From an uncultured Gemmatimonadales bacterium (GTDB taxonomy: Bacteria; Gemmatimonadota; Gemmatimonadetes; Gemmatimonadales; Gemmatimonadaceae): 64,000 nt of DNA. Within the stretch, counting starts at the first letter, position 1, and each line of letters starts with the position of its first letter. The position numbers were made by a program, and so were the translations under genes. The DNA is taken from positions 64,001 through 128,000 of the forward strand of contig CAVPQB010000002.1 of assembly GCA_963707505.1 (NCBI GenBank). Direction: 5' to 3'. Below are positions 12,305-46,004 of the stretch, piece after piece. Under the pieces are notes generated by a model, which saw nothing but the letters and a program-made list of their open reading frames with translations, did not search any database and was not told the origin of the DNA.

Positions 12305-12577
12305 GTGGATTATCCCGTGCAGTCACCCGAACAGCTGGGCATCTACTTGCGCTCTCTGCGCAAGTCGCGTGGACTCACCCAGGGAGCACTCGGCAAAATG
12401 CTCGGAGTTTCTACGGCACGAGTCGCGTACATCGAACATCATCCTGGCACGGTCGGGAGCGGACAACTCCTTAAAATCCTGCACTTGCTCGGCGCACATC
12501 TCTACCTGGATGACGGAACGGCCAAACGTGACGCGCGCGCCAACACGCGGCAGCCAACAGCTGTAGGCGAGTGGTGA
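12305..12577 (+). CDS. hipB: HipB-like XRE antitoxin
   Basis: GTG start after AGGAGA. HTH LRSLRKSRGLTQGALG...VAYIE; C-terminal EW; TGATG overlap with hipA. Confidence 0.85.
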   Translation: MDYPVQSPEQLGIYLRSLRKSRGLTQGALGKMLGVSTARVAYIEHHPGTVGSGQLLKILHLLGAHLYLDDGTAKRDARANTRQPTAVGEW

Positions 12578-13953
12578 TGGCCCGAGCCATCAAGGCCCTC
12601 GATGTCTGGATGAACGGAGAACGTGTCGGAGTCTGGCAACCAAGCCGATCGGGGAATCCGACCTTTCAATACCACGAAGAGTGGCTCGCATCGGACATGG
12701 CTCGCCCGATCTCGCTATCGCTTCCATTCACGCCGGGGAATGAGCCACATCGAGGAGAATACGTCTCCGCTTGGTTCGACAATCTGCTCCCCGATAGCGA
12801 GCCGATTCGGAAGCGCATTGGGCAGCGATTTCACACGCCATCTCTGCAGACATTCGATCTTCTTGCTTCAATTGGAAGAGACTGCGTAGGCGCTGTACAG
12901 ATCGTTCCTGCCGGCGTCGATCCAGGCGACGTGAGACGTATCGACGCCGAGCAGATGACGGATGCCGAAGTCGCCGCTGTGCTGCGCGGTGTCACCGTGT
13001 CGCAGCCGTTTGGCGCGAACGATGACGACGAGCTCCGGATCTCCATCGCCGGTGCCCAGGAGAAAACGGCACTTCTGCGTATCGGTGACCGCTGGCATCG
13101 ACCGCGAGGTGCCACGCCGACAACACATATTCTGAAGCTACCTCTCGGCCTGATCGGGAACATGCGCGCGAACATGCGCGACTCCGTTGAGAACGAGTGG
13201 CTGTGTCTTGAATTCCTTCGTCTGCTCGGGCTCCCCGTGGCCAATGCCTCGATCGCGTCCTTCGAAGACGATGTGAGCGATGAAAAGGCACTGGTGGTCG
13301 AACGCTTCGATCGACAGCGCGTAAGTGCGACGGCAGATACGCCGGAGTGGATCGTACGCCTGCCGCAGGAAGACTTCTGTCAGGCAACCCGAACACCGCC
13401 TGACAGGAGATACGAAGGCGACGGCGGTCCCGGTATTTCGACAGGCCTCGCGTTGCTTGGCGGTGGAGAGAGATACCACGACGACGCTCTGACGTTCGCC
13501 AAGGCCCAACTGGCATTCTGGCTTCTGGCGGCGCCTGACGGGCACGCGAAGAACTTCTCCGTCTTTCTCAGGCGCAGCGGACACATCATGACGCCGCTTT
13601 ACGATGTGTTGTCGGCGTGGCCAATCATCGGCAGAGGACCGAACAAATGGGCGCAGCAGGATGTCAAGCTGGCAATGGCATTGCGCGGCAGACACACGCA
13701 TCGTCGTCTACACGAGATTGCCACTCGGCATTGGCGCTCGTTGGCCGCGAAAACCGGAACGAGGAACGCGTTCCAGCAAATGGTCTCGATGGTGGATACC
13801 GTCGACTCCGCGCTCGATGCGCTGGAGTCCTCTCTCGATGCCAACTTTCCCGAGCACGTGTGGTCGAGTATATCGAAAGGCGTCCGGTCGCAACGAGTCC
13901 GCTTCAAGAAGGGGCTCGAACATGGCAACGTCGGTGATACGATGCTCGCGTAG
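12577..13953 (+). CDS. hipA: HipA toxin kinase
   Basis: PISLSLP, FDNLLPD, IGRDCVGA, ISIAGAQEKTAL, THILK, LVVERFDR, QEDFCQA, DGHAKNFS, TPLYDV. Confidence 0.95.
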   Translation: MARAIKALDVWMNGERVGVWQPSRSGNPTFQYHEEWLASDMARPISLSLPFTPGNEPHRGEYVSAWFDNLLPDSEPIRKRIGQRFHTPSLQTFDLLASIGRDCVGAVQIVPAGVDPGDVRRIDAEQMTDAEVAAVLRGVTVSQPFGANDDDELRISIAGAQEKTALLRIGDRWHRPRGATPTTHILKLPLGLIGNMRANMRDSVENEWLCLEFLRLLGLPVANASIASFEDDVSDEKALVVERFDRQRVSATADTPEWIVRLPQEDFCQATRTPPDRRYEGDGGPGISTGLALLGGGERYHDDALTFAKAQLAFWLLAAPDGHAKNFSVFLRRSGHIMTPLYDVLSAWPIIGRGPNKWAQQDVKLAMALRGRHTHRRLHEIATRHWRSLAAKTGTRNAFQQMVSMVDTVDSALDALESSLDANFPEHVWSSISKGVRSQRVRFKKGLEHGNVGDTMLA

Positions 13954-13960
13954 CGTCGAA

Positions 13961-14006
13961 CCAGAGGCACCGGTCGGAATCGAACCGACGAATAGGAGAT
14001 TTGCAG
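13961..14006 (-). repeat. Displaced 3' half of tRNA-Cys (outer att site)
   Basis: 46-nt match to 48538-48583, from the anticodon loop to past the 3' end, with 2 compensatory T-stem differences. Confidence 0.92.
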
Positions 14007-14226: not shown

Positions 14227-14367
14227 GGGGCGGCTATATCGCTTGGCGCGGGCTCAAAAAGTGATATAATTTACACATACCCACATTATTGTGATTATTT
14301 TTCGCGATTAGTGAATGAATTAGGGCTTTTTCGATTCGTAAGAACCGAAAGCACCAAAGGTGAATAA

Positions 14368-16314
14368 ATGTCTGATCGAAACACTATGCGTGATGGAATT
14401 TCACAGAATGTGATGTCTTTTCACGGACGTCCACTCCCCGAACTTGCCTCACCTGTCGGATACGCCCGGCTCATCCACCTGTATGACCTTCAGCTGCCCA
14501 TCCCGCCTAGGCTAGCTGCCGTAGCGGTGCGGCACCACCCACAGTCAACCGACGAATGGTTGTTGGTTACCCCCAGACACAGGCCCGAGGAGACGCTGGC
14601 AGGGCAGTTGGAGTTTGCGCTCAAGTGGGAGGGCGTTGATCTCGGCGTAATCAACGCTCTGACCATGATTGTCCCGCCGGTAGAATTTGAGGCACTCATC
14701 CGAGCAACGCCGACCGGCAGCTACGCACGAAGGATTTGGTTCTTATATGAGTGGCTCACAGGTCAAACACTGGCACTTCCGAATGCGGGGAAGGTCCGTG
14801 CGGTGCCAGTGCTGAACCCGGTCCAGCAGTTCGCCCTTTCGAAGGGGACCATGTCGACACGACATCGCGTCATCGACAACCTTCCCGGTACGCGTGCATT
14901 CAGCCCACTTGTACGAAGGACGCAGGCCCTCAACGCAGTTGCCGCAAAACAGTTAAACCGCCGGGCCCGCGAGGTGCTGGGCCGCACGCATGGCGACGTC
15001 ATCGCGAGAGCAGCTGCATTTCTGCTCCTGAGCGATAGCCGCTCGTCTTTCGACATCGAGGGCGAGCACCCTTCGCGCCAGAGGACTGCGCGCTGGGCTC
15101 AGGCGATCGGGCAAGCTGGCGCTCGCCCGTTGAGCATCGACGAACTCGAACGCCTCCAGCAAATCGTCATTGGCGATGCCCGCTTCGTCCATCTCGGACT
15201 GAGGGAAGACGGCGGTTTTGTTGGCGACCATGACCGTCTCACCCAGGAGCCATTACCCGAGCACATAAGTGCACGTGCCAAAGACCTCCGAGATCTACTC
15301 ACCGGGGTCGTCGACTATGTATCCCGAGCCGTGGCAGGAGGTCTCGACCCTGTAGTTGCAGCAGCAACCGCGGCGTTCGGCTTTGTGTACATCCATCCAT
15401 TCGAAGACGGCAATGGTCGACTACACAGATGGTTGATCCATCATGCGTTGGCGATCACCGGTTATAACCCGCCCGGCGTCGTCTTTCCGGTAAGCGCAGC
15501 AATACTTCGTGAGCTTGATACCTACAAGCGCGTGCTCGAATCGTATTCCAAGCCGCTACTTCCATACATCAATTGGGAACCCACCGAACGCGGCAACGTG
15601 AACGTGCTGAACGAGACGGCTCAATATTACCGATACTTCGATGCCACCGCGCATGCCGAGTTTCTGTATCAGTGTGTCGCTACGACGGTGGAGCGGGACC
15701 TTCCAGACGAAGTTGCGTATCTCGAAGGCTATGATCGATTCGCGGCACGAGTACAGCTGATTGTAGACTTGCCAGCTCGCATGGTCGAGCTACTGCATGG
15801 CTTCCTGCAACAGGGACACGGTCATTTTTCCAAACGGGCGAGGGAGAAGGAGTTCGCAGCACTTACGGAAGAAGAAGTCAGAAGCATCGAGCAACTCTAC
15901 GCGGACTGCTTCACGCGCGAGCCCGCATCAAACACTCCAGTAACTCAGGAGAACAACGCTGCGGCTGCATCCTCGCCGCCCTCTGCGGCTGTGCTCTCCC
16001 CACTCCCAATATCGTTGCAACGGGGGCAACTGGTCGCCATCGCACGGCAACTTGTCACTCCAGTCGACATTCCAGCGCTAATAGCAGAAGGAATTATCGC
16101 GAAAGCGCGCGGCGCATGGTACGAAGTGATCGATGGGAAACGGTTGCCAGAACACGTCACCGCGCAAATTCACGAGTTCCGATTAGAAGTGGGAGAACAA
16201 GGGCAGCAACGCCAATTCGTCAAGATTCCACCGGTTCGCAAGAAAGCCCTGCGTCTTTATCGAGAACTCACGGGAGAAGACGCACCTATCGTTCCCCGCG
16301 AACCACGCACATAA
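14368..16314 (+). CDS. Fic family AMPylase (class II) with C-terminal extension, copy 1
   Basis: Catalytic motif HPFEDGNGRLHR and inhibitory motif SFDIEG. Confidence 0.93.
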   Translation: MSDRNTMRDGISQNVMSFHGRPLPELASPVGYARLIHLYDLQLPIPPRLAAVAVRHHPQSTDEWLLVTPRHRPEETLAGQLEFALKWEGVDLGVINALTMIVPPVEFEALIRATPTGSYARRIWFLYEWLTGQTLALPNAGKVRAVPVLNPVQQFALSKGTMSTRHRVIDNLPGTRAFSPLVRRTQALNAVAAKQLNRRAREVLGRTHGDVIARAAAFLLLSDSRSSFDIEGEHPSRQRTARWAQAIGQAGARPLSIDELERLQQIVIGDARFVHLGLREDGGFVGDHDRLTQEPLPEHISARAKDLRDLLTGVVDYVSRAVAGGLDPVVAAATAAFGFVYIHPFEDGNGRLHRWLIHHALAITGYNPPGVVFPVSAAILRELDTYKRVLESYSKPLLPYINWEPTERGNVNVLNETAQYYRYFDATAHAEFLYQCVATTVERDLPDEVAYLEGYDRFAARVQLIVDLPARMVELLHGFLQQGHGHFSKRAREKEFAALTEEEVRSIEQLYADCFTREPASNTPVTQENNAAAASSPPSAAVLSPLPISLQRGQLVAIARQLVTPVDIPALIAEGIIAKARGAWYEVIDGKRLPEHVTAQIHEFRLEVGEQGQQRQFVKIPPVRKKALRLYRELTGEDAPIVPREPRT

Positions 16315-16536
16315 ATTCGCATTGACACGACGAATTCGGTGCTCGGCCCATTATGCGCACGACACGAGTGGAGTATGTAGCGAGTCACAATCCGGACCGC
16401 TCTATCAACCCGAGACCGCGCCCTTGCAGGACCACACCCGCGCGCGACAGAGCGAAATACGCTTAGTCGTTTGCGAAGCCGAGCGTAAACTCAGATAGCT
16501 ATGCCACGTAGTCGGTGTTAGCACTTCCCCGCCCAC

Positions 16537-16579
16537 GCTTCGGGAGCAAGAGGTCGCCGGTTCAAATCCGGCCACCCGA
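16537..16579 (+). repeat. tRNA-Pro(CGG) 3'-half fragment (att relic), copy 1
   Basis: GC-TTCGGGA-GCAAGAGGTC-GCCGG-TTCAAAT-CCGGC-CACCCGA. No D-arm or 5' acceptor strand. Confidence 0.8.
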
Positions 16580-16901
16580 CTGTGTAAGATGAAGCCTCAC
16601 GGCGCGCTGCCCGAGCCGTTCAGCAACTATTCAACCTTCCTTACGCTGTCTCAGGATTCGAGGACACCGGCGCCCGAGCTTCAAGGGGCCAGTCATCCGC
16701 ATTGAAGCCGTACGATGATTATCTCACGGCCGGGCCTCGCATCTATTCAGTCGAGACGCGACGCGCGTCGGATGTCAGACGCATTCACGGCGAGGGGAGA
16801 GGGGTTAAGGGAAACCATGGCTTCGTACCCTGTTTTTGCACCCAATCCCATTGCACAGCAATGGCGCTGCGCTCTAAATTGGCTTCCCACAATCACTTGC
16901 T

Positions 16902-16946
16902 CAGAGGCACCGGTCGGAATCGAACCGACGAATAGGAGATTTGCAG
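16902..16946 (-). repeat. Displaced 3' half of tRNA-Cys (junction att between the two elements)
   Basis: Identical to 13962-14006. Confidence 0.92.
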
Positions 16947-17443: not shown

Positions 17444-19276
17444 CTACATAGTTAAAGCGACTGCGTTCTGAGGGCTCAGTTGAAAGTCACCGTGCTTGGC
17501 TCGTGCACCTGATAGTTCCGCGTACAACCCTTCTGCTGTAACCAGTCGACGATGGGAACCTCGTTCTACAATTTCTCCGCCATCCACCACGCAGATTTCA
17601 TCGGCGTCCTCGATAGTACTTAACCGATGCGCGACGACTAAAACGGTACGGCCGACTCTAAGGCGTTCCATAGCGCGCTGAATAAATCGCTCACCGAGCG
17701 CGTCGATAGCCGACGTAGCCTCGTCAAATAACACGATCGGAGCGTTACGCAGGAATGCTCGCGCGATTGCGATCCGCTGTCGTTGACCGCCGCTCAGCGT
17801 CATTCCTCCCTCGCCGACGAGTGTGTTCAGCCCGTCAGGCAACTGCATTGCAAACTCGTTGACATATGCATCGGCCGCCGCCCTGTGGACCTCATCTTCT
17901 GTGGCACTAAGGCGTCCGTACAGGATATTCTCACGAATCGTTCCATAGAAGAGCTGGACTTCTTGAGGCACCAGAGCGATATGCGCCCGAAGAGATCTAA
18001 TTGTGAGTTTCCGAATATCAGTTCCATCAATGCAGATTGTCCCTTGCGATGGATCAGCGAAACGCAGGACTAAATTGACAATTGTAGATTTGCCCGCCCC
18101 GCTGACTCCAACGAGTGCGATTGTCTTGCCGGGCGACGCCACGAGCGTCACGCCGCGCAAGACTGTGCGCTGGTTCCCGTAACCAAACCATACGTTGTTA
18201 AAGCGAATTTCCCCATACGGATTGACTAAGACTCGTGCGTCCGAAGCGTCGACGACATCCGGCATCGCGTCGAGAAGTTCGAAGATGCGCACGGAAGCGC
18301 CGGTCGCTGCGCTTGTTGTGCTGTAGACTTGAGTCAATTCGGAGAAACACTGAGCAATAGTTTGCGAGTAAAAAAGAAAGGCAATCACATCTCCCGCAGA
18401 CAGTCGTCCAGCGATGACCTCTCGTCCTCCGAACCAAAAGAGCGCCACCAGCGAAAGGACCGAAATGAACTCGATTACCGCACCGAATACGGCGCCCGTA
18501 TATGCGACTCGACATGACTTTTGGAAAACCCCGTCAACTTCTTTTCGATATCGCTGTGCCTCGAACGGCTCGCGTGTGAACGCCTTGACAATACGGATCG
18601 ACACCAATGATTCGTGGGCGACCGCGCTAGCCTTTGCTAGGCCGTCTTGTACATCACGCGATAAGAACCGTACCCGCCGGCCAAAGTGCTTAGAAGTGAG
18701 AGTCGCAGCTGGGGCGCTTAATAACGTAATGACAGCCAGACGCCAATTGAGTGTGAGCATCACCCCAAGGGCGCCAACAAGTTTCGCAGATTGCAATATG
18801 GCGGCGATAATTACGTCGGTCACCACAGTACGGACGGCCGCAACATCGCTTGTGAGACGTGATGATAGGTCGCCTATACGTTCGGATGCAAAGTAGGACA
18901 CGCCGAGACTCTGCAAGTGTTCGTACACTCGCGCTCGAAGATCGGCGACGATGCGTTCACCCGTGGTTTTGAGCAATACACCACCGAGTGCCGAAAGGGC
19001 GCTTCGCGACGCAAGTAATGCGAGAAGCCAGACAGCGACGACAGTCAACTGCGCTGCGTTCCGATTCGTAAGCACTGAATCAAGTAACTTCTTCAAGCCC
19101 AGCGGAAAGACTAAGCCAACAAGGGCTCCGCTTACGGCAAGTGTTCCGGCCACGCTAATCCGTTTCCAATGACCGCGCCCAATGAAGAACAAGCGCCTCC
19201 ATGGCACCGTACTGTTCAGCGGGGAACGACGAGACTTAGCGTTACGAGCCTCATCGTTCGCCATTATGCGAATCAT
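17444..19276 (-). CDS. ABC exporter, fused TMD-NBD (LanT-like, no peptidase domain)
   Basis: GVSGAGKST, LSGGQRQRIAIARA, FDEATSA, VAHRLST. ATG at 19276 overlaps the LanKC stop (ATGA). Confidence 0.9.
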   Translation of the reverse strand: MIRIMANDEARNAKSRRSPLNSTVPWRRLFFIGRGHWKRISVAGTLAVSGALVGLVFPLGLKKLLDSVLTNRNAAQLTVVAVWLLALLASRSALSALGGVLLKTTGERIVADLRARVYEHLQSLGVSYFASERIGDLSSRLTSDVAAVRTVVTDVIIAAILQSAKLVGALGVMLTLNWRLAVITLLSAPAATLTSKHFGRRVRFLSRDVQDGLAKASAVAHESLVSIRIVKAFTREPFEAQRYRKEVDGVFQKSCRVAYTGAVFGAVIEFISVLSLVALFWFGGREVIAGRLSAGDVIAFLFYSQTIAQCFSELTQVYSTTSAATGASVRIFELLDAMPDVVDASDARVLVNPYGEIRFNNVWFGYGNQRTVLRGVTLVASPGKTIALVGVSGAGKSTIVNLVLRFADPSQGTICIDGTDIRKLTIRSLRAHIALVPQEVQLFYGTIRENILYGRLSATEDEVHRAAADAYVNEFAMQLPDGLNTLVGEGGMTLSGGQRQRIAIARAFLRNAPIVLFDEATSAIDALGERFIQRAMERLRVGRTVLVVAHRLSTIEDADEICVVDGGEIVERGSHRRLVTAEGLYAELSGARAKHGDFQLSPQNAVALTM

Positions 19277-22272: not shown

Positions 22273-22401
22273 TCAGAACGAGGTCGTAGTGGAACTAAGA
22301 TTCGACGAGCAACTCTGGTCAGATACACAACTCACCCCGGAGCCAAGGCACGGATCTAGGGGCGACGAATCCAGAGTCTGAAGTGAAAGGACGATCGACA
22401 T
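22273..22401 (-). CDS. Lanthipeptide precursor A4: MSIVLSLQTLDSSPLDP-CLGSGVSCVSDQSCSSNLSSTTTSF
   Basis: Translated by hand. AGGA RBS; VLxLQ class III leader motif; conserved core pattern. Confidence 0.92.
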   Translation of the reverse strand: MSIVLSLQTLDSSPLDPCLGSGVSCVSDQSCSSNLSSTTTSF

Positions 22402-22500
22402 GGTTGGAATTCCTGAAAGATGGTAAGAGATGATGGGGTTGATTGGTTATCGGAGTGACAACCAATCAACATTCCACCGCGTGCAACGAATGGTGATTTC

Positions 22501-22635
22501 TTAGTCGATCGTTGTATCTGCCGAACTAAGATGAGAGTCACAGCTGGCGTTAGAAGAGCAGCTGACGCTTGACAGGATGCAGGGATCCATACCTGGCTTT
22601 GCAGCGATCTGCTGTAGTGCTAGCACGTTATACAT
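22501..22635 (-). CDS. Lanthipeptide precursor A3: MYNVLALQQIAAKPGMDP-CILSSVSCSSNASCDSHLSSADTTID
   Basis: C-terminal 44 aa of track ORF 22501..22800. GAGAGG RBS before the ATG at 22635. Confidence 0.92.
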   Translation of the reverse strand: MYNVLALQQIAAKPGMDPCILSSVSCSSNASCDSHLSSADTTID

Positions 22636-22721
22636 AGGAGCCTCTCTTTGTTGGATTATGAAGAATTGCCTTAACAGAGAACACCGCCGCCGCCGGTTTT
22701 TCCGACAGCGAATGGATTGAT

Positions 22722-22850
22722 CTATACCGTTGTGTCTGTCGTGCTGTTTTGGGAAATGCAGCTGTTGTGCGACTCGCAGCTGACATTCGACATCAAACAT
22801 GGATCAAGCGCCGAAATAGTTAGCTGTTGGAGCCTAAGTACGTGTATCAT
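22722..22850 (-). CDS. Lanthipeptide precursor A2: MIHVLRLQQLTISALDP-CLMSNVSCESHNSCISQNSTTDTTV
   Basis: Translated by hand. AGGA RBS; same leader and core pattern. Confidence 0.92.
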   Translation of the reverse strand: MIHVLRLQQLTISALDPCLMSNVSCESHNSCISQNSTTDTTV

Positions 22851-22905
22851 TGGTTCTGTTCCTAGTTAATTGTGAGTATTGCAGGCGATGCGTACCAACC
22901 GCGAC

Positions 22906-23037
22906 TTAGGCGATTGTGGTATCCATACCACTTATCATTGAGACGCAGCTCAACTCCGAGCTACAGCTAACCGCTGAGAAATTGCATGGATCGAGGGACG
23001 ATTGATGCAACTGCTGAAGAGCCAGAACACTGTACAC
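22906..23037 (-). CDS. Lanthipeptide precursor A1 (GTG start): MYSVLALQQLHQSSLDP-CNFSAVSCSSELSCVSMISGMDTTIA
   Basis: Translated by hand. GGAGG RBS; same leader and core pattern. Confidence 0.92.
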   Translation of the reverse strand: MYSVLALQQLHQSSLDPCNFSAVSCSSELSCVSMISGMDTTIA

Positions 23038-23354
23038 GTAACCTCCGTAGCTGATGGTGTGTGACCGCGCGGTATGACATGACGTGTCGTCATGTGTGCT
23101 CGGTCGGTTGAACGAATCTCACGCGATCTTGAAGTTCGCGTGATGCCAAAATCGGTCTAAGAGCTGCGTGTTCCGGCCAATCACAACAGACGCGTGGTTC
23201 GTTTCGGCGTCGTCATTCCTTTGTCGATCGGGTTGATTTTGATTGCATCTGGCCCGATGGCGTTCGTTCGTGCATACTTATAGATGCTGATGCGCTCCGC
23301 TCTGATCAGAGTGCGAATCGCAGCTCTATCCTCAGACGCTTGGCTTGGCCGACC

Positions 23355-24734
23355 ATGAACCAACCGGAGCCCGACCCGAACATCGGAAGCGGAAAGCGCG
23401 TGCTCGTCGCAGACGATCAAGTGCATGTCGTACACGCAATTCGGCTGATGCTGAAAACAGCGGGATATTCGGTCGATACGGCAACAAGTGTTGCGGAAGC
23501 ACAAACTGCTCTCGACCTAAAACACTACGATCTACTGTTATTGGACTTGAACTACACTGCAGATACAACGTCCGGGCGCGAAGGTCTTGATCTTCTGCCG
23601 TCGATTCACAGAAGACATCCGACCCTTCCAGTTGTAGTCATGACAGCTTGGGGTTCCGTCCCAAGCGCAGTCGAAGCCGTTCGCGCCGGGGCGGTGAATT
23701 ATGTGGAAAAGCCGTGGGACAACAGAAAGCTGCTAACGATCGTCGCGCTGCATACTGGACGGTCGATCAGTCACGCTGAGGCGGGCGCGCAGAGCGAAAC
23801 TGGTACTACGGCGTCTTTATTACCAGACATGATGTATCGGTCCGCGGCGATGGAGCGGATATTGGCGCTTGCCGCCCGCATCGCGCCGTCCGACGCCAAC
23901 GTTCTGATTACAGGCGAGCATGGTACCGGTAAAGAATTGCTTGCAAGGTGGATACACGTCAACTCTCCTCGGCGAAACGAATCCTTTATTGCTGTCAATA
24001 TGGGTGGCCTTCCAGAAGGCGTGGTCGAAAGTGAATTGTTCGGCCACGTGCGAGGTGCATATACTGACGCGAAATCGGATCGGACGGGGCGGTTTGAACT
24101 TGCGAACAAGGGCTCGCTCTTTCTAGATGAAATTGCCAATACCCCTCTATCGCTTCAGGCAAAGCTCCTGAGAGTACTGCAAACCGGTGACGTCGAAAAA
24201 GTGGGCGCGTCGACTCCCAGTCACGTGGACATCCGTGTGATCGCTGCCACGAACGTGAATCCGCGGCTTGAGGTCGTAGCAGGCCGCTTTCGGGAAGACT
24301 TGCTGTTCCGACTCAACACGATCGCGATTCATTTGCCGCCGCTTAGAGAGCGGCTGGAGGATCTGGAATTACTCGCAACCCATTTCTTGTTGCGTCACGC
24401 CGGACGGTACGGACGGACATTCTCCGGCTTCAGTGAGTCGGCACTTACTGCACTCCGGCAATATCCCTGGCCGGGGAATGTCCGAGAACTAGATCATGTA
24501 GTCGAGAGGTCTGTTCTTCTAGCGGACGGGACTCAAGTGGATGTGACTGATCTCATTCCCGACGCAACGGATCCACAGGTGGCTCTCGAGAATGGGACGC
24601 TCGATGACGTTGAGCGGATTATGATTCGCCGCGCCCTCGAGCGCGCGGGTGGAAACGTGGCTCAGGCCGCTAAGGCGCTAGGCGTCAGTAGAAGCGCGCT
24701 GTACCGGCGAATGTCAAACGAGCCTAATAAATGA
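23355..24734 (+). CDS. Sigma54-dependent response regulator (NtrC/AtoC family)
   Basis: REC domain (DLNY, MTAWG), GEHGTGKE, ESELFGH-GAYTDA (GAFTGA variant), FLDEI, WPGNVREL, Fis-type HTH. Confidence 0.92.
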   Translation: MNQPEPDPNIGSGKRVLVADDQVHVVHAIRLMLKTAGYSVDTATSVAEAQTALDLKHYDLLLLDLNYTADTTSGREGLDLLPSIHRRHPTLPVVVMTAWGSVPSAVEAVRAGAVNYVEKPWDNRKLLTIVALHTGRSISHAEAGAQSETGTTASLLPDMMYRSAAMERILALAARIAPSDANVLITGEHGTGKELLARWIHVNSPRRNESFIAVNMGGLPEGVVESELFGHVRGAYTDAKSDRTGRFELANKGSLFLDEIANTPLSLQAKLLRVLQTGDVEKVGASTPSHVDIRVIAATNVNPRLEVVAGRFREDLLFRLNTIAIHLPPLRERLEDLELLATHFLLRHAGRYGRTFSGFSESALTALRQYPWPGNVRELDHVVERSVLLADGTQVDVTDLIPDATDPQVALENGTLDDVERIMIRRALERAGGNVAQAAKALGVSRSALYRRMSNEPNK

Positions 24735-26104
24735 GGAAAGACAAGCGCATACCAAGTATCCCTTGGTCCGACCGTCGATTCGGACTCTTGGTCATCGCGA
24801 GCACTGCTCCTCTCGCGGTTCTTGCGTTCGGAGCGGTCGCGTATCTTGTTGATGAGCGCTTATTAATTCGCCAACACACACTATTCGCTGTGGGGACAGC
24901 CTTAGTCGTGGTGGTTGCATTATGGTTGTGGTCTATAGCACACCTTTGGCGTATCGTCATCTGGCCATTGCGAACGTTATCCAATGGAATTGCCGCGATC
25001 CGCCAGCATGACTATGCAATACGGCTTAAGCGAAACAACCCGAGTGATGCACTTGGCCTGGCGTTCGTTGAGCTCAACCTGTTAGCAGAAACACTGATGG
25101 ATGAGCGCACCCATGCGGTGGAGGCGCAGGCACTCGTGGCGACTGTATTAGAAGAAATTGACGTGGCGGTATTTGCATTCGATAGTGGTACACACATGCG
25201 ATTCGTGAATCGCCGCGCCGAATTGCTTCTCGGTCGAACGACCGGGGAGCTCACACTTTGTGCTGCGAGTGAGCTCGGATTGGGTTTTTGTCTTGAGGGC
25301 CCGCCGGATCGCACAATGACGATCCCTCTAGACGGAGGCTCCAGCCGGTGGAGAGTCCGACGCAGCAGCTTTCGCCAAGACGGTTTACCGCATCAACTGG
25401 TAACGCTTAGTGATGTCGGGTCAACACTTCGTGCAGAAGAGCAATCGGCCTGGCAGCGCCTGGTCCGCGTCCTCGGGCACGAAATCAACAACTCGCTTGG
25501 ACCAATCCGTTCTATTGCCGATACGCTTGCGTCCTTACTTGCTCGCACATCTCGACCGTTGGACTGGGAAGAAGATGCAACCGCCGGTCTAGAAGTCATA
25601 CGGGATCGGGCTACAGGCCTTAGTCGATTCCTTGAGTCATACTCTCTCCTCGCGCGCCTTCCTCGACCTTTACCCACAGTGGTTCGTATTGGTGACGTCA
25701 TCTCCCATGTGGTACGGCTAGAACAACGCGTAGCGATTGAGGTTCGCGGTGATCCTGAACTGCGGGTTCGCGTGGACAGTGATCAGCTTCAGCATTTGCT
25801 GATTAACCTAGTCCGGAATGCATGTGATGCCCTCGCAGCCGCACCAGGTCACATCCAAGTAGGTTGGCAACGCCACAACACCGATCTTGATTTGACAGTA
25901 ACGGATTCGGGGTCAGGCGTTGCCAATATGGCGAACCTCTTTGTCCCGTTCTTCACTACGAAAGGCACTGGATCTGGCATAGGACTAGCTTTGAGTCGAC
26001 AGATTGCAGAGAATCACGGAGGGACACTCACCCTCGCCAACCGAGCAGATTCACCAGGAGCCATAGCGCGACTGCTCATCCCAAACGCCGTCGTCAATGT
26101 GTAG
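24731..26104 (+). CDS. Sensor histidine kinase (NtrY-like, HAMP/PAS)
   Basis: Two TM segments; LGHEINNSL, INLVRNA, PFFTTK, GIGL. Confidence 0.9.
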   Translation: MRKDKRIPSIPWSDRRFGLLVIASTAPLAVLAFGAVAYLVDERLLIRQHTLFAVGTALVVVVALWLWSIAHLWRIVIWPLRTLSNGIAAIRQHDYAIRLKRNNPSDALGLAFVELNLLAETLMDERTHAVEAQALVATVLEEIDVAVFAFDSGTHMRFVNRRAELLLGRTTGELTLCAASELGLGFCLEGPPDRTMTIPLDGGSSRWRVRRSSFRQDGLPHQLVTLSDVGSTLRAEEQSAWQRLVRVLGHEINNSLGPIRSIADTLASLLARTSRPLDWEEDATAGLEVIRDRATGLSRFLESYSLLARLPRPLPTVVRIGDVISHVVRLEQRVAIEVRGDPELRVRVDSDQLQHLLINLVRNACDALAAAPGHIQVGWQRHNTDLDLTVTDSGSGVANMANLFVPFFTTKGTGSGIGLALSRQIAENHGGTLTLANRADSPGAIARLLIPNAVVNV

Positions 26105-26538
26105 AAGCGTTCGTCCTGTGACGGAACCACGTGTGTCATGAAAGACCAAACACTTTGATGTAACTGCGCGCTGCATTTAAGCGCGCGAAGTCCCGCGACT
26201 TCATTCAGACGTAAGTTGTCCGGCGCGGTTGCGCTTAGCTGACGGGAAAGATTAGACGGGGAGGTGCTATGCCGTCGCCGCTGCTTGAGACGGCATGTGC
26301 CCGCGTAGCTGGGGACACACATGCGAATGGATCCGCTATCAAGTTGAAGTCACCCTCACGAGAACAACACTTATATCCCGATTTTGTTCGATTATGGGAT
26401 TCGCAGTCCCGAATCCGAACAAATTGCCTGTCTTCGTAACGGGACCCGTGGATTCCTTGTTCCGTTAAGATTAGGCGTAGCATAGACTTACCGAACAACG
26501 CCTCAGCGCTAGGCGAAGCGGCACAAGGTTTCCATTGA

Positions 26539-27930
26539 TTGGTCCACGTGAAACCTAATCTTACATCGTCGCGCGATTTCTTAGATGTCGCTCAAATGGA
26601 GTCAGAGGATCACCGCGGCAACGCGAGTTCGACCTCGACTGGCGACCCTTTCGCAAGCCACCACCCGCACGCCATTGGCGTAATGGATGTCCCGCGGACT
26701 CGCACCGGGACCGCAACGCGCCGCGCTTGGACAATTGGGGGAGGGGCCGCTGTTGTCATGTTGATTATTGCAGGTCTTACCACACGCCACTCTGGCACCG
26801 CATCGGTTGAGCGGTCAGCCATTTGGATCGATACCGTGCGACGTGGAGATATGGTACGCGAGGTGCGCGCGCCCGGCGTCCTTGCACCGGAGCGCTTGCA
26901 TATAATCGCAGCGGCGAGCCCCGGTCGGGTCGATATGATTTTCGTTCGCCCTGGAACCGCCGTTGTTGATTCGACTACGCTCGCCATTCTTAGTAATCCG
27001 GACGTGCAGCTCGAAGCAGTGAGTGCAAACGAACAAGTGTCTAACGCGGAGGCCGCGCTTGTTGCTTTAGAGACAAGCCTTGAAAGCCAGCGCCTAGCAC
27101 AGGTGGGCGTCGTAGCGAGTGCGCGCAGCAGCTCCACTAGCGCGGTCCGTACTGCCGCAGCCACAACAGAGCTGGGTCGACGAGGCTTTGCCGCGTCGCT
27201 CGATGTAAGCAAAGCAACGGACCAAGCTGCCGAAATGGAGACACGACTGAAGGCAGAAGAATCTCGCTTGAGGCTAATTGAGACGTCTACTCATAGTCAG
27301 CTTCAACTTCAACGTGACCAGATTCAACGCCTCAAAGACGTCGCCAAATACCAAACGGATCGCCTAGCGGCAATGCGGATTACCTCAGGGAGTAGTGGGG
27401 TAGTGCAAGAAATTCCGCTTTCGCTAGGGCAATGGGTCACGCCCGGGACCTTACTTGCGAAAGTGGTTGACCCTACCCGCCTGAAGGCCGTGCTTAGAGT
27501 GCCAGCGACCGAGGCTGATGAGATAACAATTGGCAAACGCGTCGTTGTCGACACGCACACTGGCAAGATACGTGGTCAAGTAAGCCGACTCGACCCCGGA
27601 GTAAGTGAAGGTACGGTGGGTATAGATATCACTTTCGACGATACGCTTCCAAGGGGGGCACGCGTTGATATGAGCATCGACGGATCAGTTGTAATCGATC
27701 GTATTGTAAACGCCCTTTACATGAATCGCCCAGCGGGCACGAGTGGAAATAGCTCCGCCACTGTCTTTGTTCTTTCACCAGATGGGAAGAGTGCTATCCC
27801 ACGCGTCGTTCAACTAGGACGACTGTCAGCAACAACCATTGAAGTTCTAAAAGGCCTTAATCCCGGGGACAAGGTAATTGTATCGGACATGAGCGCGTTC
27901 GCCCGCGCACAGGAAGTAGCGGTACACTGA
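26539..27930 (+). CDS. Efflux periplasmic adaptor (HlyD/MacA-like); true start uncertain
   Basis: TM anchor; IWIDTVRRGDMVREVRAPG; coiled coil; GLNPGDKVIVSD. Confidence 0.88.
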   Translation: MVHVKPNLTSSRDFLDVAQMESEDHRGNASSTSTGDPFASHHPHAIGVMDVPRTRTGTATRRAWTIGGGAAVVMLIIAGLTTRHSGTASVERSAIWIDTVRRGDMVREVRAPGVLAPERLHIIAAASPGRVDMIFVRPGTAVVDSTTLAILSNPDVQLEAVSANEQVSNAEAALVALETSLESQRLAQVGVVASARSSSTSAVRTAAATTELGRRGFAASLDVSKATDQAAEMETRLKAEESRLRLIETSTHSQLQLQRDQIQRLKDVAKYQTDRLAAMRITSGSSGVVQEIPLSLGQWVTPGTLLAKVVDPTRLKAVLRVPATEADEITIGKRVVVDTHTGKIRGQVSRLDPGVSEGTVGIDITFDDTLPRGARVDMSIDGSVVIDRIVNALYMNRPAGTSGNSSATVFVLSPDGKSAIPRVVQLGRLSATTIEVLKGLNPGDKVIVSDMSAFARAQEVAVH

Positions 27931-28043
27931 GACGCATGACTACGTCGATTTCAGACGACTAATGATTGGACGATAACTGATATGCGCATAAAAGATGTCA
28001 ATGATCATCTTCACGCTAATCGCGCCGCAGTATTCTATGGCGT

Positions 28044-28796
28044 ATGGAGCATTCTATGCTAGTCAACGAAGTAACGCCGATCACACCGCAACTCGCCGAT
28101 ACTGTGTTAGTAAAGTTAACAAATGTAGGTAAGGTATTTTCCACTGATGAAATCGAGACTCATGCACTTTCACGAGTGCAGCTAACTATCGAACGTGGAG
28201 AGTACGTTGCCATAGCTGGTCCATCTGGGTGTGGCAAGTCTACTCTGCTCTCGATTCTCGGCCTGTTGGAACGACCATCATCGGGGGACTATTACTTGGA
28301 TGGGAACGACATTCGAAGTCTCGATCGTGCCCAACGTGCACACATCCGTAACCGCTACCTCGGGTTCGTCTTTCAGGCGTTTAACCTGATTGGCGATATG
28401 ACAGTGTACGAGAACGTTGAACTTCCGTTGACGTATCGTGAGAAGACGGAGAGTCGACGCCGTGAAGCGGTTGAAGAAGCCCTGGAGCGAGTCGGAATGT
28501 CGCACCGACAGAAGCACTACCCAGCTCAGCTGTCTGGCGGACAGCAGCAGCGTGTCGCGGTTGCGCGAGCCGTCACCGGCAAGCCGGCGCTACTTCTAGC
28601 GGACGAGCCAACCGGCAACTTGGATTCGACTAATAGCGAGTCCGTAATGAGTCTTCTCAGTCAATTTCACTCTCAAGGTACAACCGTGTGCATAGTAACG
28701 CACGATCCCCGGTTCGCTGCACATGCAACTCGAACTATTCGACTATTTGACGGCAATATCGTCGATGAGAAACTTGCGCACTCGGGACCCATCTGA
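28044..28796 (+). CDS. MacB/LolD-type ABC ATP-binding protein
   Basis: GPSGCGKST, QLSGGQQQRVAVARA, LADEPTGNLD. Confidence 0.93.
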   Translation: MEHSMLVNEVTPITPQLADTVLVKLTNVGKVFSTDEIETHALSRVQLTIERGEYVAIAGPSGCGKSTLLSILGLLERPSSGDYYLDGNDIRSLDRAQRAHIRNRYLGFVFQAFNLIGDMTVYENVELPLTYREKTESRRREAVEEALERVGMSHRQKHYPAQLSGGQQQRVAVARAVTGKPALLLADEPTGNLDSTNSESVMSLLSQFHSQGTTVCIVTHDPRFAAHATRTIRLFDGNIVDEKLAHSGPI

Positions 28797-28930
28797 TTCA
28801 CGAATATTCGCCGACTCAAGTCACGGGACGCAACGGATATCTGGCTAGGTCACCGAAGGTCTTATCGCGTGGCGCAATATACGACTTCGCTCCCCGACTT
28901 ATAGCAGCAACAAACCATTGGAGGTTGTGA

Positions 28931-31369
28931 ATGCACGGGTGGATAAATGATACGCGGTATGCACTCCGGCGGATGCGGCGACATGGCGGTCTCATACTGA
29001 TCGCGACGGGAACGCTCGCGATTGGTATCGGGACAATTATTGCGCTTATGTCCATTGCACGACCGGTGATACTAGCACCACTACCCTTTCCTGATGGGAA
29101 CGCGCTAGTCGCGGTGAAGCAGAACAATCCGATGCTGGGAGGCATTAACTCTTTCTCGACGGGGAATTATTTGGCGCTCGTACGATCGACACATTCGCTT
29201 TCATCTGTCGGCGCATACACGCCGATCGATCGTACATTGACCGGGCAGGGAGCGCCTCGCGTGTTGCACGGTGCACGCGTAACGCCTTCTTTCATCGGGG
29301 TGCTCGGAGTGCAGCCGGTATCGGGTTCCACTTTCTCCCTCACGGATAGTATTCCAGGTGATCCGAGAGGTATGATCGTTGGCGACAACCCTACCGTTTT
29401 GCTCAGCTACGCAACATGGACCCAGGTATTTGGGCGCGGAGATGTAGTCGGTAGCAGCATTGCGCTTGATGGTAAGCCGTATCGAGTTGTAGGAGTAATG
29501 CCTGCCGGGTTTGCAATACCCGATCACGCTGACTTCTGGGTGCCGATGGTATTCGGAGCAATAGCGCCGGTAGATTGGGGAACGTTTTCCCTAGGCGTTG
29601 TTGGCCGACTTGCCGCTGGGAGTTCCCAAGCAGCTGCACAAACCGAGCTGAACACTATCGCTACGCATCTCCACGATCGTGGTGGTCGGATCAATCACGA
29701 CCTCACATTTCCTCTTACATCACTGAAAGAGAGCCTGCTCGGTGATTACGGCGTAGCTGTGATCGCGCTGTTATGTGTGTCCATTGCAATGCTCGTGTTG
29801 ATTTGCGCAAACTTAGGAACCATGCTGTTGGCTCAGGGGATTGAGCGGACAGGTGAGTTGGCGGTCCGTTCCGCGCTCGGAAGTCCTCGATGGCAGGTAA
29901 TGCGTCCTTTAATGCTAGAAAGTATGAGTCTAGCGATCGTGGGCGCTTTCGCTGGTTGTGCACTAGCGCCGGTAATTATTGCGGGTTTAGTCGCAGTAGC
30001 CCCTTCGGGAATTCTGACGGTTTGGAATATTCATACAGACATAACAGCAGTTGGCATCGGTGTTGGTGCAGCGATTATTAGCGGATTGCTCTTTGGCGTT
30101 GGGCCTGCTTTTCACCTTGCCAGAATGGCAGAAAACCCCCGTACGTTAATGCACGGCCGAGCAGTGGTAGGCAACCGAGTGCAGCGGCGGTTCCAAGGCC
30201 CACTCGTCGCATTGCAGCTGGCAATCGCGGTGGTTCTTGTCACTGGGACCTTTGGCCTCGGCAAAGTCTACCACCAATTGGTGACGCGCCCAATCGGCGT
30301 CGACCCGCAAGGCGTGGTCACCGCGGACCTGACCTTGCCTGGCGACCGATACTCTACGCCGCAAGCGGTAACCACCTTTGCTGCGACCGCTGCGCGCCAG
30401 TTTTCACACACAGGCGAGGTCAGTGATGTTGCCGTCGCCTTGAGGTTGCCTGTGCTTGATTCTGGAGGAGGGGTCTGGGCACACGTTGGCTCTAGTAGGC
30501 CAAAGGAGAACGACGGTTCGCCCGAAGTAACCTTCAATGTCATTACCGCTGACTATTTCCGCGTGCTGAATGTACCAATTCAACGCGGTCAGGCCTTCCA
30601 AGCAGACGCCGGAAATGAACCGAGCGTAGTGGTGAGTGAAAGTTTCGCTCGCTCGTTCTTCGGAACGTCCGACCCGATTGGTCAGTACGTGACACTAACA
30701 CCTTGGCCGACTACTCCACGCCGGGTTATAGGGGTTGCGGGCGATGTGTTACAAGGAGGAATGCGAGGGGCGACTCAACCGGCAGTATACGTAACATACG
30801 ATCAGGTGAAGAACTTTCCCCTTCCAACTATGCACCTGCTCGTTAAAGGGCGTAACAACAAAGCCGTGTCCCTCTCTCTAGTTCAGCAGCAACTCTTGCA
30901 GATAGATCCATTGCTTGCATTTGGAGTAATCGCGCCGCTCACTGCGCGTGTGCAAGCGTTGTCGCGTGACAACCTGGTCACATTGTGGCTTGTTGGAATG
31001 TTTGGGCTTTTAGGGCTCGCGCTCGCGAGCGCAGGCACCTATGCCGTTACATCGCTCAACATAGCCCAACAAACCCGGGAGATAGGAATTCGCGGGGCGC
31101 TAGGTGCCTCGCCGCGACAACTTTGGCATCTGTTGCTCGCGCGCGTGAGTCGGCGCGCCTTCATTGGAATTGGCTGCGGCGTGATAGCAACGTTTGTGTT
31201 ATACGTGACAACACCTCGCTGGATACCACTCGGGGGACGAGACCTGCTTTATGTCCTTGCGCCGACCACAATAGTATTGATTGGTACTTCGTTCGCCGCT
31301 ATCGCGATTCCGTTGTGGCGCGCCACGCAAGCGGAGCCGGCGGAAGCTCTGCGGCGCAGTGATGGATAG
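28931..31369 (+). CDS. ADOP-type duplicated MacB/FtsX permease
   Basis: DTRYALR, LAIGIG, LICANL, ELAVRSALGS, TREIGIRGALGA, P.EALR. Two MacB_PCD/FtsX repeats. Confidence 0.88.
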   Translation: MHGWINDTRYALRRMRRHGGLILIATGTLAIGIGTIIALMSIARPVILAPLPFPDGNALVAVKQNNPMLGGINSFSTGNYLALVRSTHSLSSVGAYTPIDRTLTGQGAPRVLHGARVTPSFIGVLGVQPVSGSTFSLTDSIPGDPRGMIVGDNPTVLLSYATWTQVFGRGDVVGSSIALDGKPYRVVGVMPAGFAIPDHADFWVPMVFGAIAPVDWGTFSLGVVGRLAAGSSQAAAQTELNTIATHLHDRGGRINHDLTFPLTSLKESLLGDYGVAVIALLCVSIAMLVLICANLGTMLLAQGIERTGELAVRSALGSPRWQVMRPLMLESMSLAIVGAFAGCALAPVIIAGLVAVAPSGILTVWNIHTDITAVGIGVGAAIISGLLFGVGPAFHLARMAENPRTLMHGRAVVGNRVQRRFQGPLVALQLAIAVVLVTGTFGLGKVYHQLVTRPIGVDPQGVVTADLTLPGDRYSTPQAVTTFAATAARQFSHTGEVSDVAVALRLPVLDSGGGVWAHVGSSRPKENDGSPEVTFNVITADYFRVLNVPIQRGQAFQADAGNEPSVVVSESFARSFFGTSDPIGQYVTLTPWPTTPRRVIGVAGDVLQGGMRGATQPAVYVTYDQVKNFPLPTMHLLVKGRNNKAVSLSLVQQQLLQIDPLLAFGVIAPLTARVQALSRDNLVTLWLVGMFGLLGLALASAGTYAVTSLNIAQQTREIGIRGALGASPRQLWHLLLARVSRRAFIGIGCGVIATFVLYVTTPRWIPLGGRDLLYVLAPTTIVLIGTSFAAIAIPLWRATQAEPAEALRRSDG

Positions 31370-31485
31370 CTGTATAGCAAGGCAATCAAATGTCATCGCC
31401 GGTTTCCGCTAACCCCTGGAGCGTCGAAATGCTATACCGCTTGGGATCAACGTGGTGCGGCAGTGTTACGAATACCCCAGGAGTT

Positions 31486-33933
31486 ATGTCTTTGGCAGTT
31501 AGACAGCTGAGTGCATTCGTTTGTACAATTCTCTTATGGCACGCATCTGTTACCGCCGCCCAAAGCGGCCCGCGATCGCTGACTCAAGCAACGGCTGAAT
31601 TCCCGTCTATAACGCAAATAGGAATCTGGCCCGATCGTTGGGATGATAGCGACGGTCTTGTGTACAGTGATAAGACCGCTGGCACAGACGAGTGGCGCTC
31701 TCTATGTATTCGCGATGGATCGTCGGTGCCACTTCTTGGACCTCGTAAATGCAACGCAAGCCCGATGTTATTCACCCACACTGATTTCGCATTCGGACCC
31801 GTGGTAGACGCCCATCAGAAAGAGTGCAAGATATGCCGATTCGACGCGTGGTACCTTGATTTCGCGAGCGACACGTCTATCGCTGTAAGACAGTCTTCCA
31901 GCTTATTTATTGTTAATCGCAGAACCGGCCGAGTCTTAGCCCGTGAACACATTCAGCCACACACCTGGTCGGCTCAAGACGCAGAGCATGGAGTAGCGGG
32001 ACCACGTTTCTCTGGGAATTACTCCAACGTCGCATTCGTTCGTGGATTCAACATCTATGTGCGGACAGTCGGGTCTGGTGGTGCGTATCGTGTAACTGCT
32101 GATGGACATGAGATGCGGCGACACGGACTGTCAGATTGGATCTACACGGAGGAATTTGGTCAGGGTGAAGGGTTATGGTGGTCACCTAACGCACGATACC
32201 TTGCGTTTGTCACTTTGGACGAGAGTCGAGTGCGACGAGTGAATGTGACGCGTCGCTTCGAAAAGGGTGAGCTCGATTCGTATCGCTACGCGTTACCAGG
32301 GGAGCCGATCGCGCGACCATCGCTGAGCGTCGTAAATCTTCGCACTCATCACGTAGCGAGACTATGGTCGGCACCCGCGCAAGACGGATACATCCTAGCG
32401 CCCACCTGGACAGGCGCACATGGTGAGATCGCCTTTGAGTGGCTGACCAGGGACCAACGTAGCATTTCGTTGATTTCGATCAATGCTAGCACCGGTCGGG
32501 TGCGACAACTGGCTCATGAATCCGATCGATCGTACTTGGAGGCGCGGATCCGGCCAGTATTCTTCGGGAAAGGTCGCTTCTTTTTGTGGCCATCCGAGCG
32601 CTCCGGTGTCATGGCTCTCTACCTATACGACAGACAAAACGACAGTTACCGGCTTGTCAGTGGCACAAGTCGAAGCCCAGTGACAAGTATCGATGGAGTG
32701 GACGAAACCGGTTGGGTGTATTTCACCGCAGCTACGAACGACGGTCTTGAACGACAGAGTTTTCGCACATCAATTACGGGTGGGGAGCCGACCAAACTGA
32801 CGTTGGAAAAAGGTACTCACCGAGTCGTGCTAAGTCCATCGCGGCACTTCTTCTTGGACTACTGGTCGTCGAAAGAGCAGCCGCTAACTGTTAGTGTGCG
32901 CGCCGTTGACGGTAATTGGTTTCGTTTGCTTGGCGTAACGGATATCCATCAAAGCCGACCGTCGCGTGCGGCTACCACAGTTCTAGAGACTGTGATAGCT
33001 GCGGATGGCTACACCAGACTGAATGCGCAGGTGCTCTTCCCAGCGGATTTCGACACTGCCAGACGCTATCCGCTGGTACTCTACGTTTATGGTGGTCCGC
33101 ACGCGCAGCTCGTCCGGGACCAGTACGGCACGGATGCCGCAATGGAGCGACTAACTCAAAGCGGATTTGTTGTTTTGGTCGCCGATAACAGAGGGACTGC
33201 GAACCGCGATCGAGCCTTCGGTCGCGCTACATATCTTGGGCTCGGCCAAGTAGATCTAGCGGATCAAATCGCGGCGGTACAACAAGTCCTCCGGCAGTAT
33301 CCGCAACTTGATAAAACGCGCGTCGGTGTATATGGCGGATCTTTTGGTGGGTACCTATCGATCCTGGCGCTCACTCACGCACCATGTCTATTTGCGGCGG
33401 GCGTTTCGATGTTTCCGGTAACAGATTGGGCTCTCTACGACGCAGCCTACTCTGAACGGTATCTGAAGCAGCCAAAAGACGCTCCACTCGCATACCAGAA
33501 GGGATCGGCTCTTACTTCGATTAATCGACTCTCTGGGCATTTGCTACTCATGTTCGGCAGCGCAGATCCAAACGTCCACGTCATCCATAGCTTGGCTGCA
33601 ATCCGGGTTGCGGCACAAAATAGAAAGGCCATTGATGTCGTTGAATTTCCTGACATGGCGCATGGCACGACACCGGCCGCTATGGATAGCGTGATCACTA
33701 CAGGGATTAATTATCTACGCGGGCATCTACTGCCTTCAGGTATAGCTGTCGAGTTGAAACAAGGGACCGACGGTTCGAGAGGAGCTCCCGCATTCGGAAT
33801 GGCATGCGACGGTACGGCAGGATCAAACACAGAACCTTCTGCCTTTCAAGCGATGGATTTGCTTGGCAAAGTCTCTAACATCGATCGTCAGCGTGCTCTC
33901 GGGCATGCTCCCTATATTCAGGTCACACAATGA
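31486..33933 (+). CDS. S9B dipeptidyl-peptidase IV / prolyl oligopeptidase-like serine peptidase with signal peptide
   Basis: AGGAG RBS. DWIYTEE, WWSP, YVYGGP, nucleophile GGSFGG, Asp in DPNV, His in MAHG. Confidence 0.9.
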   Translation: MSLAVRQLSAFVCTILLWHASVTAAQSGPRSLTQATAEFPSITQIGIWPDRWDDSDGLVYSDKTAGTDEWRSLCIRDGSSVPLLGPRKCNASPMLFTHTDFAFGPVVDAHQKECKICRFDAWYLDFASDTSIAVRQSSSLFIVNRRTGRVLAREHIQPHTWSAQDAEHGVAGPRFSGNYSNVAFVRGFNIYVRTVGSGGAYRVTADGHEMRRHGLSDWIYTEEFGQGEGLWWSPNARYLAFVTLDESRVRRVNVTRRFEKGELDSYRYALPGEPIARPSLSVVNLRTHHVARLWSAPAQDGYILAPTWTGAHGEIAFEWLTRDQRSISLISINASTGRVRQLAHESDRSYLEARIRPVFFGKGRFFLWPSERSGVMALYLYDRQNDSYRLVSGTSRSPVTSIDGVDETGWVYFTAATNDGLERQSFRTSITGGEPTKLTLEKGTHRVVLSPSRHFFLDYWSSKEQPLTVSVRAVDGNWFRLLGVTDIHQSRPSRAATTVLETVIAADGYTRLNAQVLFPADFDTARRYPLVLYVYGGPHAQLVRDQYGTDAAMERLTQSGFVVLVADNRGTANRDRAFGRATYLGLGQVDLADQIAAVQQVLRQYPQLDKTRVGVYGGSFGGYLSILALTHAPCLFAAGVSMFPVTDWALYDAAYSERYLKQPKDAPLAYQKGSALTSINRLSGHLLLMFGSADPNVHVIHSLAAIRVAAQNRKAIDVVEFPDMAHGTTPAAMDSVITTGINYLRGHLLPSGIAVELKQGTDGSRGAPAFGMACDGTAGSNTEPSAFQAMDLLGKVSNIDRQRALGHAPYIQVTQ

Positions 33934-45900: not shown

Positions 45901-45934
45901 AATATTCACACATATTTATACTTCAGTGAATATT
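45901..45934. promoter_or_regulatory. Inverted repeat, operator candidate upstream of Fic copy 2
   Basis: AATATTCAC-N16-GTGAATATT. A degenerate version lies upstream of copy 1 (about 14265-14300). Confidence 0.5.
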
Positions 45935-46004
45935 TTTCGCAACTAGTGAATAAAGTGGGCTTATTTTTTTGCCTATCCACCTTGCATTCTCCTTGAGTGA
46001 CTAA

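Follow-up and report, generated by a model that had tools for sequence, protein, structure and literature searches.

The window, the whole 64,000-nucleotide stretch of Gemmatimonadales DNA analysed here, holds a minus-strand gene group in which four short precursor genes precede a lanthipeptide synthetase and an exporter:

22906..23037, minus strand: lanA1 precursor, 43 aa, GTG start, three Cys-first units
22722..22850, minus strand: lanA2 precursor, 42 aa
22501..22635, minus strand: lanA3 precursor, 44 aa, nested in ORF 22501-22800 and starting at an internal ATG at 22635
22273..22401, minus strand: lanA4 precursor, 42 aa
19273..22065, minus strand: lanKC, 930 aa, with RamC_N lyase, kinase and LanC-like cyclase (from NF038151, Pfam, alignments and an AlphaFold model)
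17444..19276, minus strand: MsbA-like ABC exporter without a peptidase domain, its start overlapping the lanKC stop

The first-pass annotation had described four tandem ORFs of 42–44 residues directly upstream of lanKC, each with its own ribosome-binding site (RBS) and one of them hidden in a longer frame, and this layout is borne out: 208 nt separate the last lanA stop from the lanKC start, and purine-rich, RBS-like sites lie 5–9 nt ahead of all four lanA starts (GGAGG at lanA1, GAGAGG at lanA3, and a weaker AGGAA at lanA2 and lanA4). In an alignment of the four peptides (48–58% identity for the pairs reported), the leader columns M1, V4, L5, L7, Q8 and a D-P pair are invariant, as is the core C1-x2-S4-x-V-S7-C8-x-S10-x2-S13-C14-x-S16-x2-S19, which is followed by a Thr-containing tail. 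The core is built of three Cys-first units of the form C-x(1-2)-S-x2-S. The canonical labionin motif, S-x2-S-x(2-5)-C, is absent from the aligned cores, and a chance T-x2-S occurs in the leader of lanA4 alone. None of the peptides reaches the cut-off of any NCBIfam or Pfam model; the lanA3 leader scores weakly against NF038154 (14.9 bits, under the cut-off of 22). The LxLQ leader, the Ser/Cys core and the adjoining LanKC support the earlier assignment of the ORFs as class III lanthipeptide precursors, and precursors, synthetase and exporter together are, as judged from sequence, a class III lanthipeptide operon.

Six-frame translation of the genome (7.3 million residues) contains the three-unit motif four times, against 0.0006 occurrences expected under independence, an expectation that is post hoc because the motif was derived from these same peptides. 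A search of the same genome for further precursors returned nothing convincing besides the four (two weak matches, E 0.03 and 0.57), and promoter and terminator scans stayed at chance level. A contig from another public run covers the whole lanA stretch with 74 differing letters over 1501 nt. All three of its indels fall between the lanA ORFs; among the differences listed, nine are substitutions within ORFs, of which six are synonymous, and all nine leave the motif Cys and Ser unchanged (34 further differences lie beyond that list).

The synthetase carries the Pfam domains PF25816, PF00069 and PF05147 and scores 601 bits against the class III model NF038151, above its cut-off of 575. Its AlphaFold model (mean pLDDT 89.8) finds its best matches in the folds of CuvL and ThurKC. 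Class IV (LanL) membership was considered and rejected: the class IV model NF038150 gives 572 bits, below its cut-off of 650, and the zinc-ligand positions are replaced, the zinc-ligand Cys of CuvL corresponding to R767, D811 and Y812 in a phmmer alignment. The window cyclase is, by this alignment, free of zinc ligands. His705 was likewise discarded as a class IV-like hallmark, being retained by only 9 of the 33 enzymes of the branch described below.

Genomic setting

The lan operon lies between partial tRNA-Cys copies at about 13960, 16900 and 48540, and most 2-kb intervals from 14 to 40 kb have a GC content of 0.52–0.57, against about 0.60 outside. A 2.7-kb direct repeat (93.6%) at 14260-16946 and 45895-48583 holds a Fic-domain gene (PADLOC PDC-S24) and part of the tRNA-Cys, of which a third piece of 47 nt is found at 13960-14006. 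This arrangement suggests tandem integrations at the tRNA-Cys at 48541-48613. A full-length homolog turned up neither in 40 related genomes nor among the 400 other phylum genomes searched, an absence consistent with horizontal acquisition, and a plasmid collection gave eight matching records, every one below 35% identity. In 3 of the 400 genomes, apparently split LanKC-like systems have the lyase-kinase apart from the cyclase (G016:C11 67485-72844, G350:C1 722090-724745 and G213:C237).

Other genes of the window include a type II CBASS operon at 40447-45487 on the minus strand (SAVED-endonuclease effector, CD-NTase, E1-E2 (Cap2) and JAB (Cap3), with strong PADLOC matches), a HipA-like kinase at 12571-13953, and a DUF7380/DUF4209 protein at 36432-38405 that matches the PADLOC candidate PDC-S39. 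A divergent plus-strand block at 23340-34802 encodes a sigma-54 response regulator, a histidine kinase, an adaptor, an ABC ATPase, an ADOP-like permease, a DPP-IV-like S9 peptidase and an AraC regulator. Near lanKC in the related branch loci, ADOP-like permeases occur in 6 of 26 cases and the S9 peptidase in none. The S9/DPP-IV peptidase (31390-33933) was considered as a dedicated leader protease cutting after D-P but is not supported in that role: tblastn gave no match in the 26 loci (the longest flanks about 5 kb, some of them short), and the position ahead of Cys1 is variable. No protease conserved across these 26 loci was found; an exporter homolog adjoins lanKC in 18 of them, several loci being short.

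Cys-first units across the family

Related loci were gathered from genomes (20 loci) and metagenomes (80 of 205 matches), and LxLQ-type small ORFs were extracted. After exclusion of duplicates and of loci without a visible precursor, 74 of the 100 loci were labelled by hand; a profile search added 35 matches, and 76–77 unique precursors enter the counts. Since this set was selected by motif, the unit counts describe the family and do not test it.

The motif noted in the window recurs near LanKC genes with one to four units per precursor: one in 10, two in 23, three in 23 and four in 20 (n = 76). A Cys beyond the last unit is present in only 6 of the 76. Within units, the spacer from Cys to first Ser is one residue in 176 of 205, two in 28 and three in a single case, and at 115 of 129 junctions the next Cys follows the second Ser directly (gap range 0–6). 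The first Ser is never replaced by Thr (208 of 208). It is encoded by TCN in 119 of 119 units, the second Ser by AGY in 115 of 119. This codon pattern, together with the invariant first Ser, marks the units as homologous modules under strict selection. Canonical motifs of the sister loci use AGY for the Ser nearest the Cys in 55 of 55 cases, the codon class of the second Ser in Cys-first units.

The leader and core signature proposed for the window needs one amendment: every column is invariant in lanA1–lanA4, but the D-P ahead of Cys1 is not a family-wide feature, as the residue before Cys1 is variable and is Pro in 12 of 77 precursors. In 19 of the 77, no Ser or Thr lies between the leader motif and the Cys of the first unit, and in the L001 and L072 precursors the only Cys stands ahead of all core serines. 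Both precursors of L051 contain one unit without its first Ser.

Several side observations concern precursor architecture. Two loci (L047 and L048) have arrays of seven and eight precursors, nearly all four-unit with hypervariable x positions, and six of those in L047 are on the strand opposite lanKC. In P0153 and in WP_046714561.1 of Myxococcus fulvus, an extra N-terminal double-Gly leader segment precedes VLxLQ, which suggests a two-part leader. On the sister branch, seven loci (L090, L104, L112, L095, L117, L120 and L125) have Cys-rich cores that neither motif fits cleanly, such as C-W-S-T-C or S-C-S-S-S-x2-C-C, and these possibly represent further ring patterns. Loci L086–L088 hold tandem canonical repeats in which the next S-x2-S directly follows each Cys; a register shift in repeats of this kind is a speculative origin for the Cys-first unit.

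A single LanKC branch

Cys-first units occur in loci with the enzymes most similar to the window LanKC, and distant loci mostly have canonical S-x2-S-x(n)-C cores. Fourteen further loci were dropped because no full-length enzyme frame was extracted, leaving a tree of 68 rows, made up of 60 loci, seven database proteins and the window enzyme (quick search, midpoint root). All 27 Cys-first rows fall to the same side of a single branch (SH-aLRT 100), and core type changes once on the tree, compared with about 20 times in shuffles. The branch also holds enzymes of M. fulvus, Melittangium boletus, Corallococcus, Luteimonas and Longimicrobium; LanKC P0122, from one M. boletus strain, belongs to it. 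Among the matches listed, cultured carriers include M. fulvus, Corallococcus carmarthensis, Stigmatella hybrida, Archangium primigenium and Luteimonas aquatica. By regular expression, 24 of 27 branch loci have x(1-3)-S-x2-S after the last Cys (23 once a spurious L057 ORF is discounted), as against 0 of 33 sister loci, and a canonical S/T-x2-S/T stands ahead of the first Cys in 2 of the 27 branch loci and 25 of the 33 sister loci; no P value is attached to these counts because the loci are kin and the counts non-independent.

The enzymes themselves differ in a few cyclase residues. The loop N806-K807-x-W809 is present in 33 of 33 branch enzymes and in 0 of 34 others (frameshifted L065 excluded), and His765 in 30 of 33, where 33 of 34 others have Tyr. 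The window enzyme carries both, and with its repeated C-x(1-3)-S-x2-S core the window system sits within the Cys-first branch on substrate and enzyme alike. Because branch-specific positions also abound outside the cyclase, His765 and Asn806-Lys807-Trp809 are candidates for the residues that set ring direction. The window system is a member of a LanKC branch for which no description as such was found in the literature.

Direction of ring closure

In class III systems the synthetase binds the LxLQ helix of the leader, and its kinase and lyase activities generate Dha. The window LanKC would likely engage the leader helix in this manner and dehydrate the motif serines, after which the Cys of each unit would likely join a Dha downstream within that unit. 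Ring closure would then run N-to-C, opposite to the familiar S-x2-S-x(2-5)-C. The ABC transporter would export the product, and the leader would presumably be removed by a protease encoded elsewhere. With four variant cores and an exporter, all on a mobile segment, the locus may encode a set of secreted peptides.

One member of the family has been expressed, so the family is not unpublished, a status that the first-pass annotation could not confirm. The M. fulvus 'LanIII' precursor WP_046714561.1 was produced in 2022 with the LanKC WP_083560159.1, and cyclisation was assessed with NEM and DTT (PMC9576775). Table 1 of that report gives 7 dehydrations and 3 (methyl)lanthionines, with no ring map beside the entry and the product not pursued further there. 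These three rings, if they use all three Cys, imply that Cys1 bonds downstream. The single-Cys members, with Cys before all serines, imply the same for a Cys1-type residue, and wherever no Ser or Thr lies upstream, the first-unit Cys can react downstream only. Units are gained and lost whole while their ends and the Cys-Ser distance stay fixed, from which we infer that each Cys probably stays in its own unit. On balance, the core is probably closed into three tandem N-to-C rings, each Cys adding to a downstream Dha of its own C-x(1-2)-S-x2-S unit. This agrees with the first-pass preference for a reversed parse: precursors hold one to four units, begin with Cys and end with S-x2-S nearly always, and belong to one LanKC branch.

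Several observations count against this unit-wise reading. The spacer is mostly one residue, below the 2–5 of known labionins, so that attack on the first Ser would give a tight ring. The second Ser is AGY like the canonical Cys-proximal Ser, and an inherited forward S-x2-S-C polarity would fit that equally. The next Cys abuts the second Ser at 115 of 129 junctions, and each L051 precursor has a unit that lacks the first Ser. Some single-unit precursors (L057, L069, L075 and L076) also have a further C-terminal Cys.

Within the unit-wise reading, the second Ser would be captured by the enolate, giving a labionin-type link, or left as Dha beside a lanthionine, the mirror image of SapB, with about even chances. 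A labionin has the same mass as a lanthionine plus Dha. Taken by itself, the lanthionine with a free Dha is less likely than not, though in keeping with the published M. fulvus wording, the tight one-residue spacer and the L051 unit that lacks its first Ser; the single published result favours it in wording only. The labionin-type link is only slightly less likely than that. It is favoured by the 7 dehydrations among 11 Ser/Thr in M. fulvus, close to the 6 motif serines, and by the units themselves, in which neither Ser varies, Thr never stands in for the first and the two-residue gap is fixed. Should this link be formed, the N-terminal Cys would add to a downstream Dha and the resulting enolate would capture a second Dha, either as a mirror-image labionin or with Cys on the distal Ser and the carbacycle nested inside the thioether ring. 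We regard it as possible, but would not presume, that the branch makes a new crosslink of this sort, a tandem array of back-to-front labionin-type triamino acids built on a stackable six-residue unit, with the His and Asn-Lys-Trp loops reversing direction.

Alternative topologies

A nested arrangement is unlikely. Here the inner S-x2-S-C motifs would react forward without a spacer (Cys8 to S4/S7, Cys14 to S10/S13) and Cys1 would close a single large outer ring to S16/S19. Such a topology uses all three Cys and so fits the M. fulvus result, and both the adjacent S-C at 115 of 129 junctions and the shared codon class of the second Ser and the canonical Cys-proximal Ser agree with it. Oppositely oriented nested rings are reportedly found in the class III product nocardiopeptin A2, and the bridging pattern of the nocardiopeptins is said to be unusual. 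It would, however, require two neighbouring residues of a labionin-type motif to be joined in a ring, and one conserved enzyme would have to close outer rings ranging from 6 to about 25 residues. The gap from Ser to the next Cys varies from 0 to 6, yet the Cys-to-Ser distance is 1–2 in 204 of 205 units, the first unit included, and single-unit members would still need N-to-C closure.

Interlocked or heterogeneous products, in which every Cys pairs with a Dha from an adjoining unit or a mixture is formed, are distinctly unlikely. Cys and Ser are spaced densely enough for this, and mixtures have precedent in EryKC and StaKC (PMC8341899), but the free gain and loss of whole units (1–4) and inter-unit spacers of up to 6 residues favour independent modules.

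Canonical class III chemistry, with Ser joined only to downstream Cys, Cys1 left free to bind metal, form a disulfide or be acylated, and the final S-x2-S kept as Dha, is very improbable. Every labionin characterised in a 2020 review derives from S-x2-S-x(2-5)-C (PMC8341899); against this, the motif is missing in three of the four window cores, the M. fulvus product is listed with three rings for three Cys (PMC9576775), and single-Cys members would be ringless. Least credible is a silent lan cluster, carried along on a mobile island and yielding no product: it does lie in a lower-GC segment between tRNA-Cys repeats, with a full-length homolog in 0 of 400 other phylum genomes (3 with split two-piece relatives), but its genes are intact, the differences in the related contig are mostly synonymous, and an active homolog is on record in M. 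fulvus (PMC9576775).

Neighbouring enzyme groups that differ cleanly in substrate polarity and in a few cyclase-loop residues make the choice of Cys partner, ring direction and crosslink type testable by residue and substrate swaps, and one branch system, that of M. fulvus, already works in E. coli (PMC9576775). As a compact, repeatable ring module tolerant of varied x residues, the unit would provide a polycyclic scaffold of a new kind. Genome-mining software built around Ser-before-Cys motifs may tend to miss Cys-first precursors.

Relation to known systems

Canonical class III systems (SapB, labyrinthopeptin, stackepeptin and andalusicin; ThurKC, PneKC and TherKC) share with the window a zinc-ligand-free lyase-kinase-cyclase, the LxLQ leader and the fixed S-x2-S spacing, and motif multiplication is described for stackepeptin. 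Unlike them, the window cores place Cys before the serines with a spacer of 1–2. In a sequence alignment, R609, D666 and S725 of TherKC correspond to Y647, H705 and R767 of the window enzyme, and the F769-D770 region to a W-H-D-Y loop where the alignment is gapped. From its core sequence, the window system is placed outside the canonical labionin-motif group. Compared by description, the substrate motifs given for subclasses III-a to III-d exclude the Cys-first unit (PMC13504147); catalytic residues and substrate motifs of other LanKC subclasses are given in PMC10604976 and PMC13504147. Among solved structures, CuvL, the class IV curvocidin synthetase (PDB 8CAR/8CAV), is the best match in both sequence (E 4.5e-58) and fold; the window enzyme keeps its GxxHG His but not its zinc-ligand Cys.

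The 2020 review that derives all known labionins from S-x2-S-x(2-5)-C adds that the same motif can yield lanthionine plus Dha and that the choice between them is not understood (PMC8341899), with product mixtures known for EryKC and StaKC. For zinc-free class III cyclases, the Cys partner, the ring direction and the labionin/lanthionine choice are stated as open (PMC8341899, PMC10604976). For four single-Cys Streptomyces peptides, subfamily C, a 'reverse labionin', CxSxxS, has been put forward on computational grounds (PMC11251773). These resemble the window peptides in unit motif and in the idea of reversal, and differ in having a single Cys and in coming from clusters that encode type II as well as type III cyclases. 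A further peptide there, with the ASC repeat present three times, is mentioned but left unparsed. Boletupeptin, from M. boletus, is a class III product of a myxobacterium. A survey of mainly openly accessible literature, whose scope ends short of the boletupeptin, melittapeptin and nocardiopeptin reports, yielded neither an experimentally shown reverse labionin nor a class III Cys-first ring that had been mapped. Within that scope, the ring pattern has no mapped precedent, and the three-unit core itself has one expressed example, from M. fulvus.

That M. fulvus system is among the closest known systems. Its precursor has the same three-unit core and VLxLQ leader motif, but is a single peptide with the extra double-Gly extension, compared with four short-leader precursors in the window. 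The first 52 shared residues of WP_083560159.1, read by eye, match the branch protein P0121, which sits in the 90% cluster of P0076, an M. fulvus LanKC on the Cys-first branch that is 44% identical to the window LanKC. The enzyme branch has one representative that has been expressed and is reported without a ring map. One expressed family member and one in silico 'reverse labionin' were already on record (PMC9576775, PMC11251773); what the present comparison appears to add is the tie between the Cys-first unit and one LanKC branch marked by N-K-x-W.
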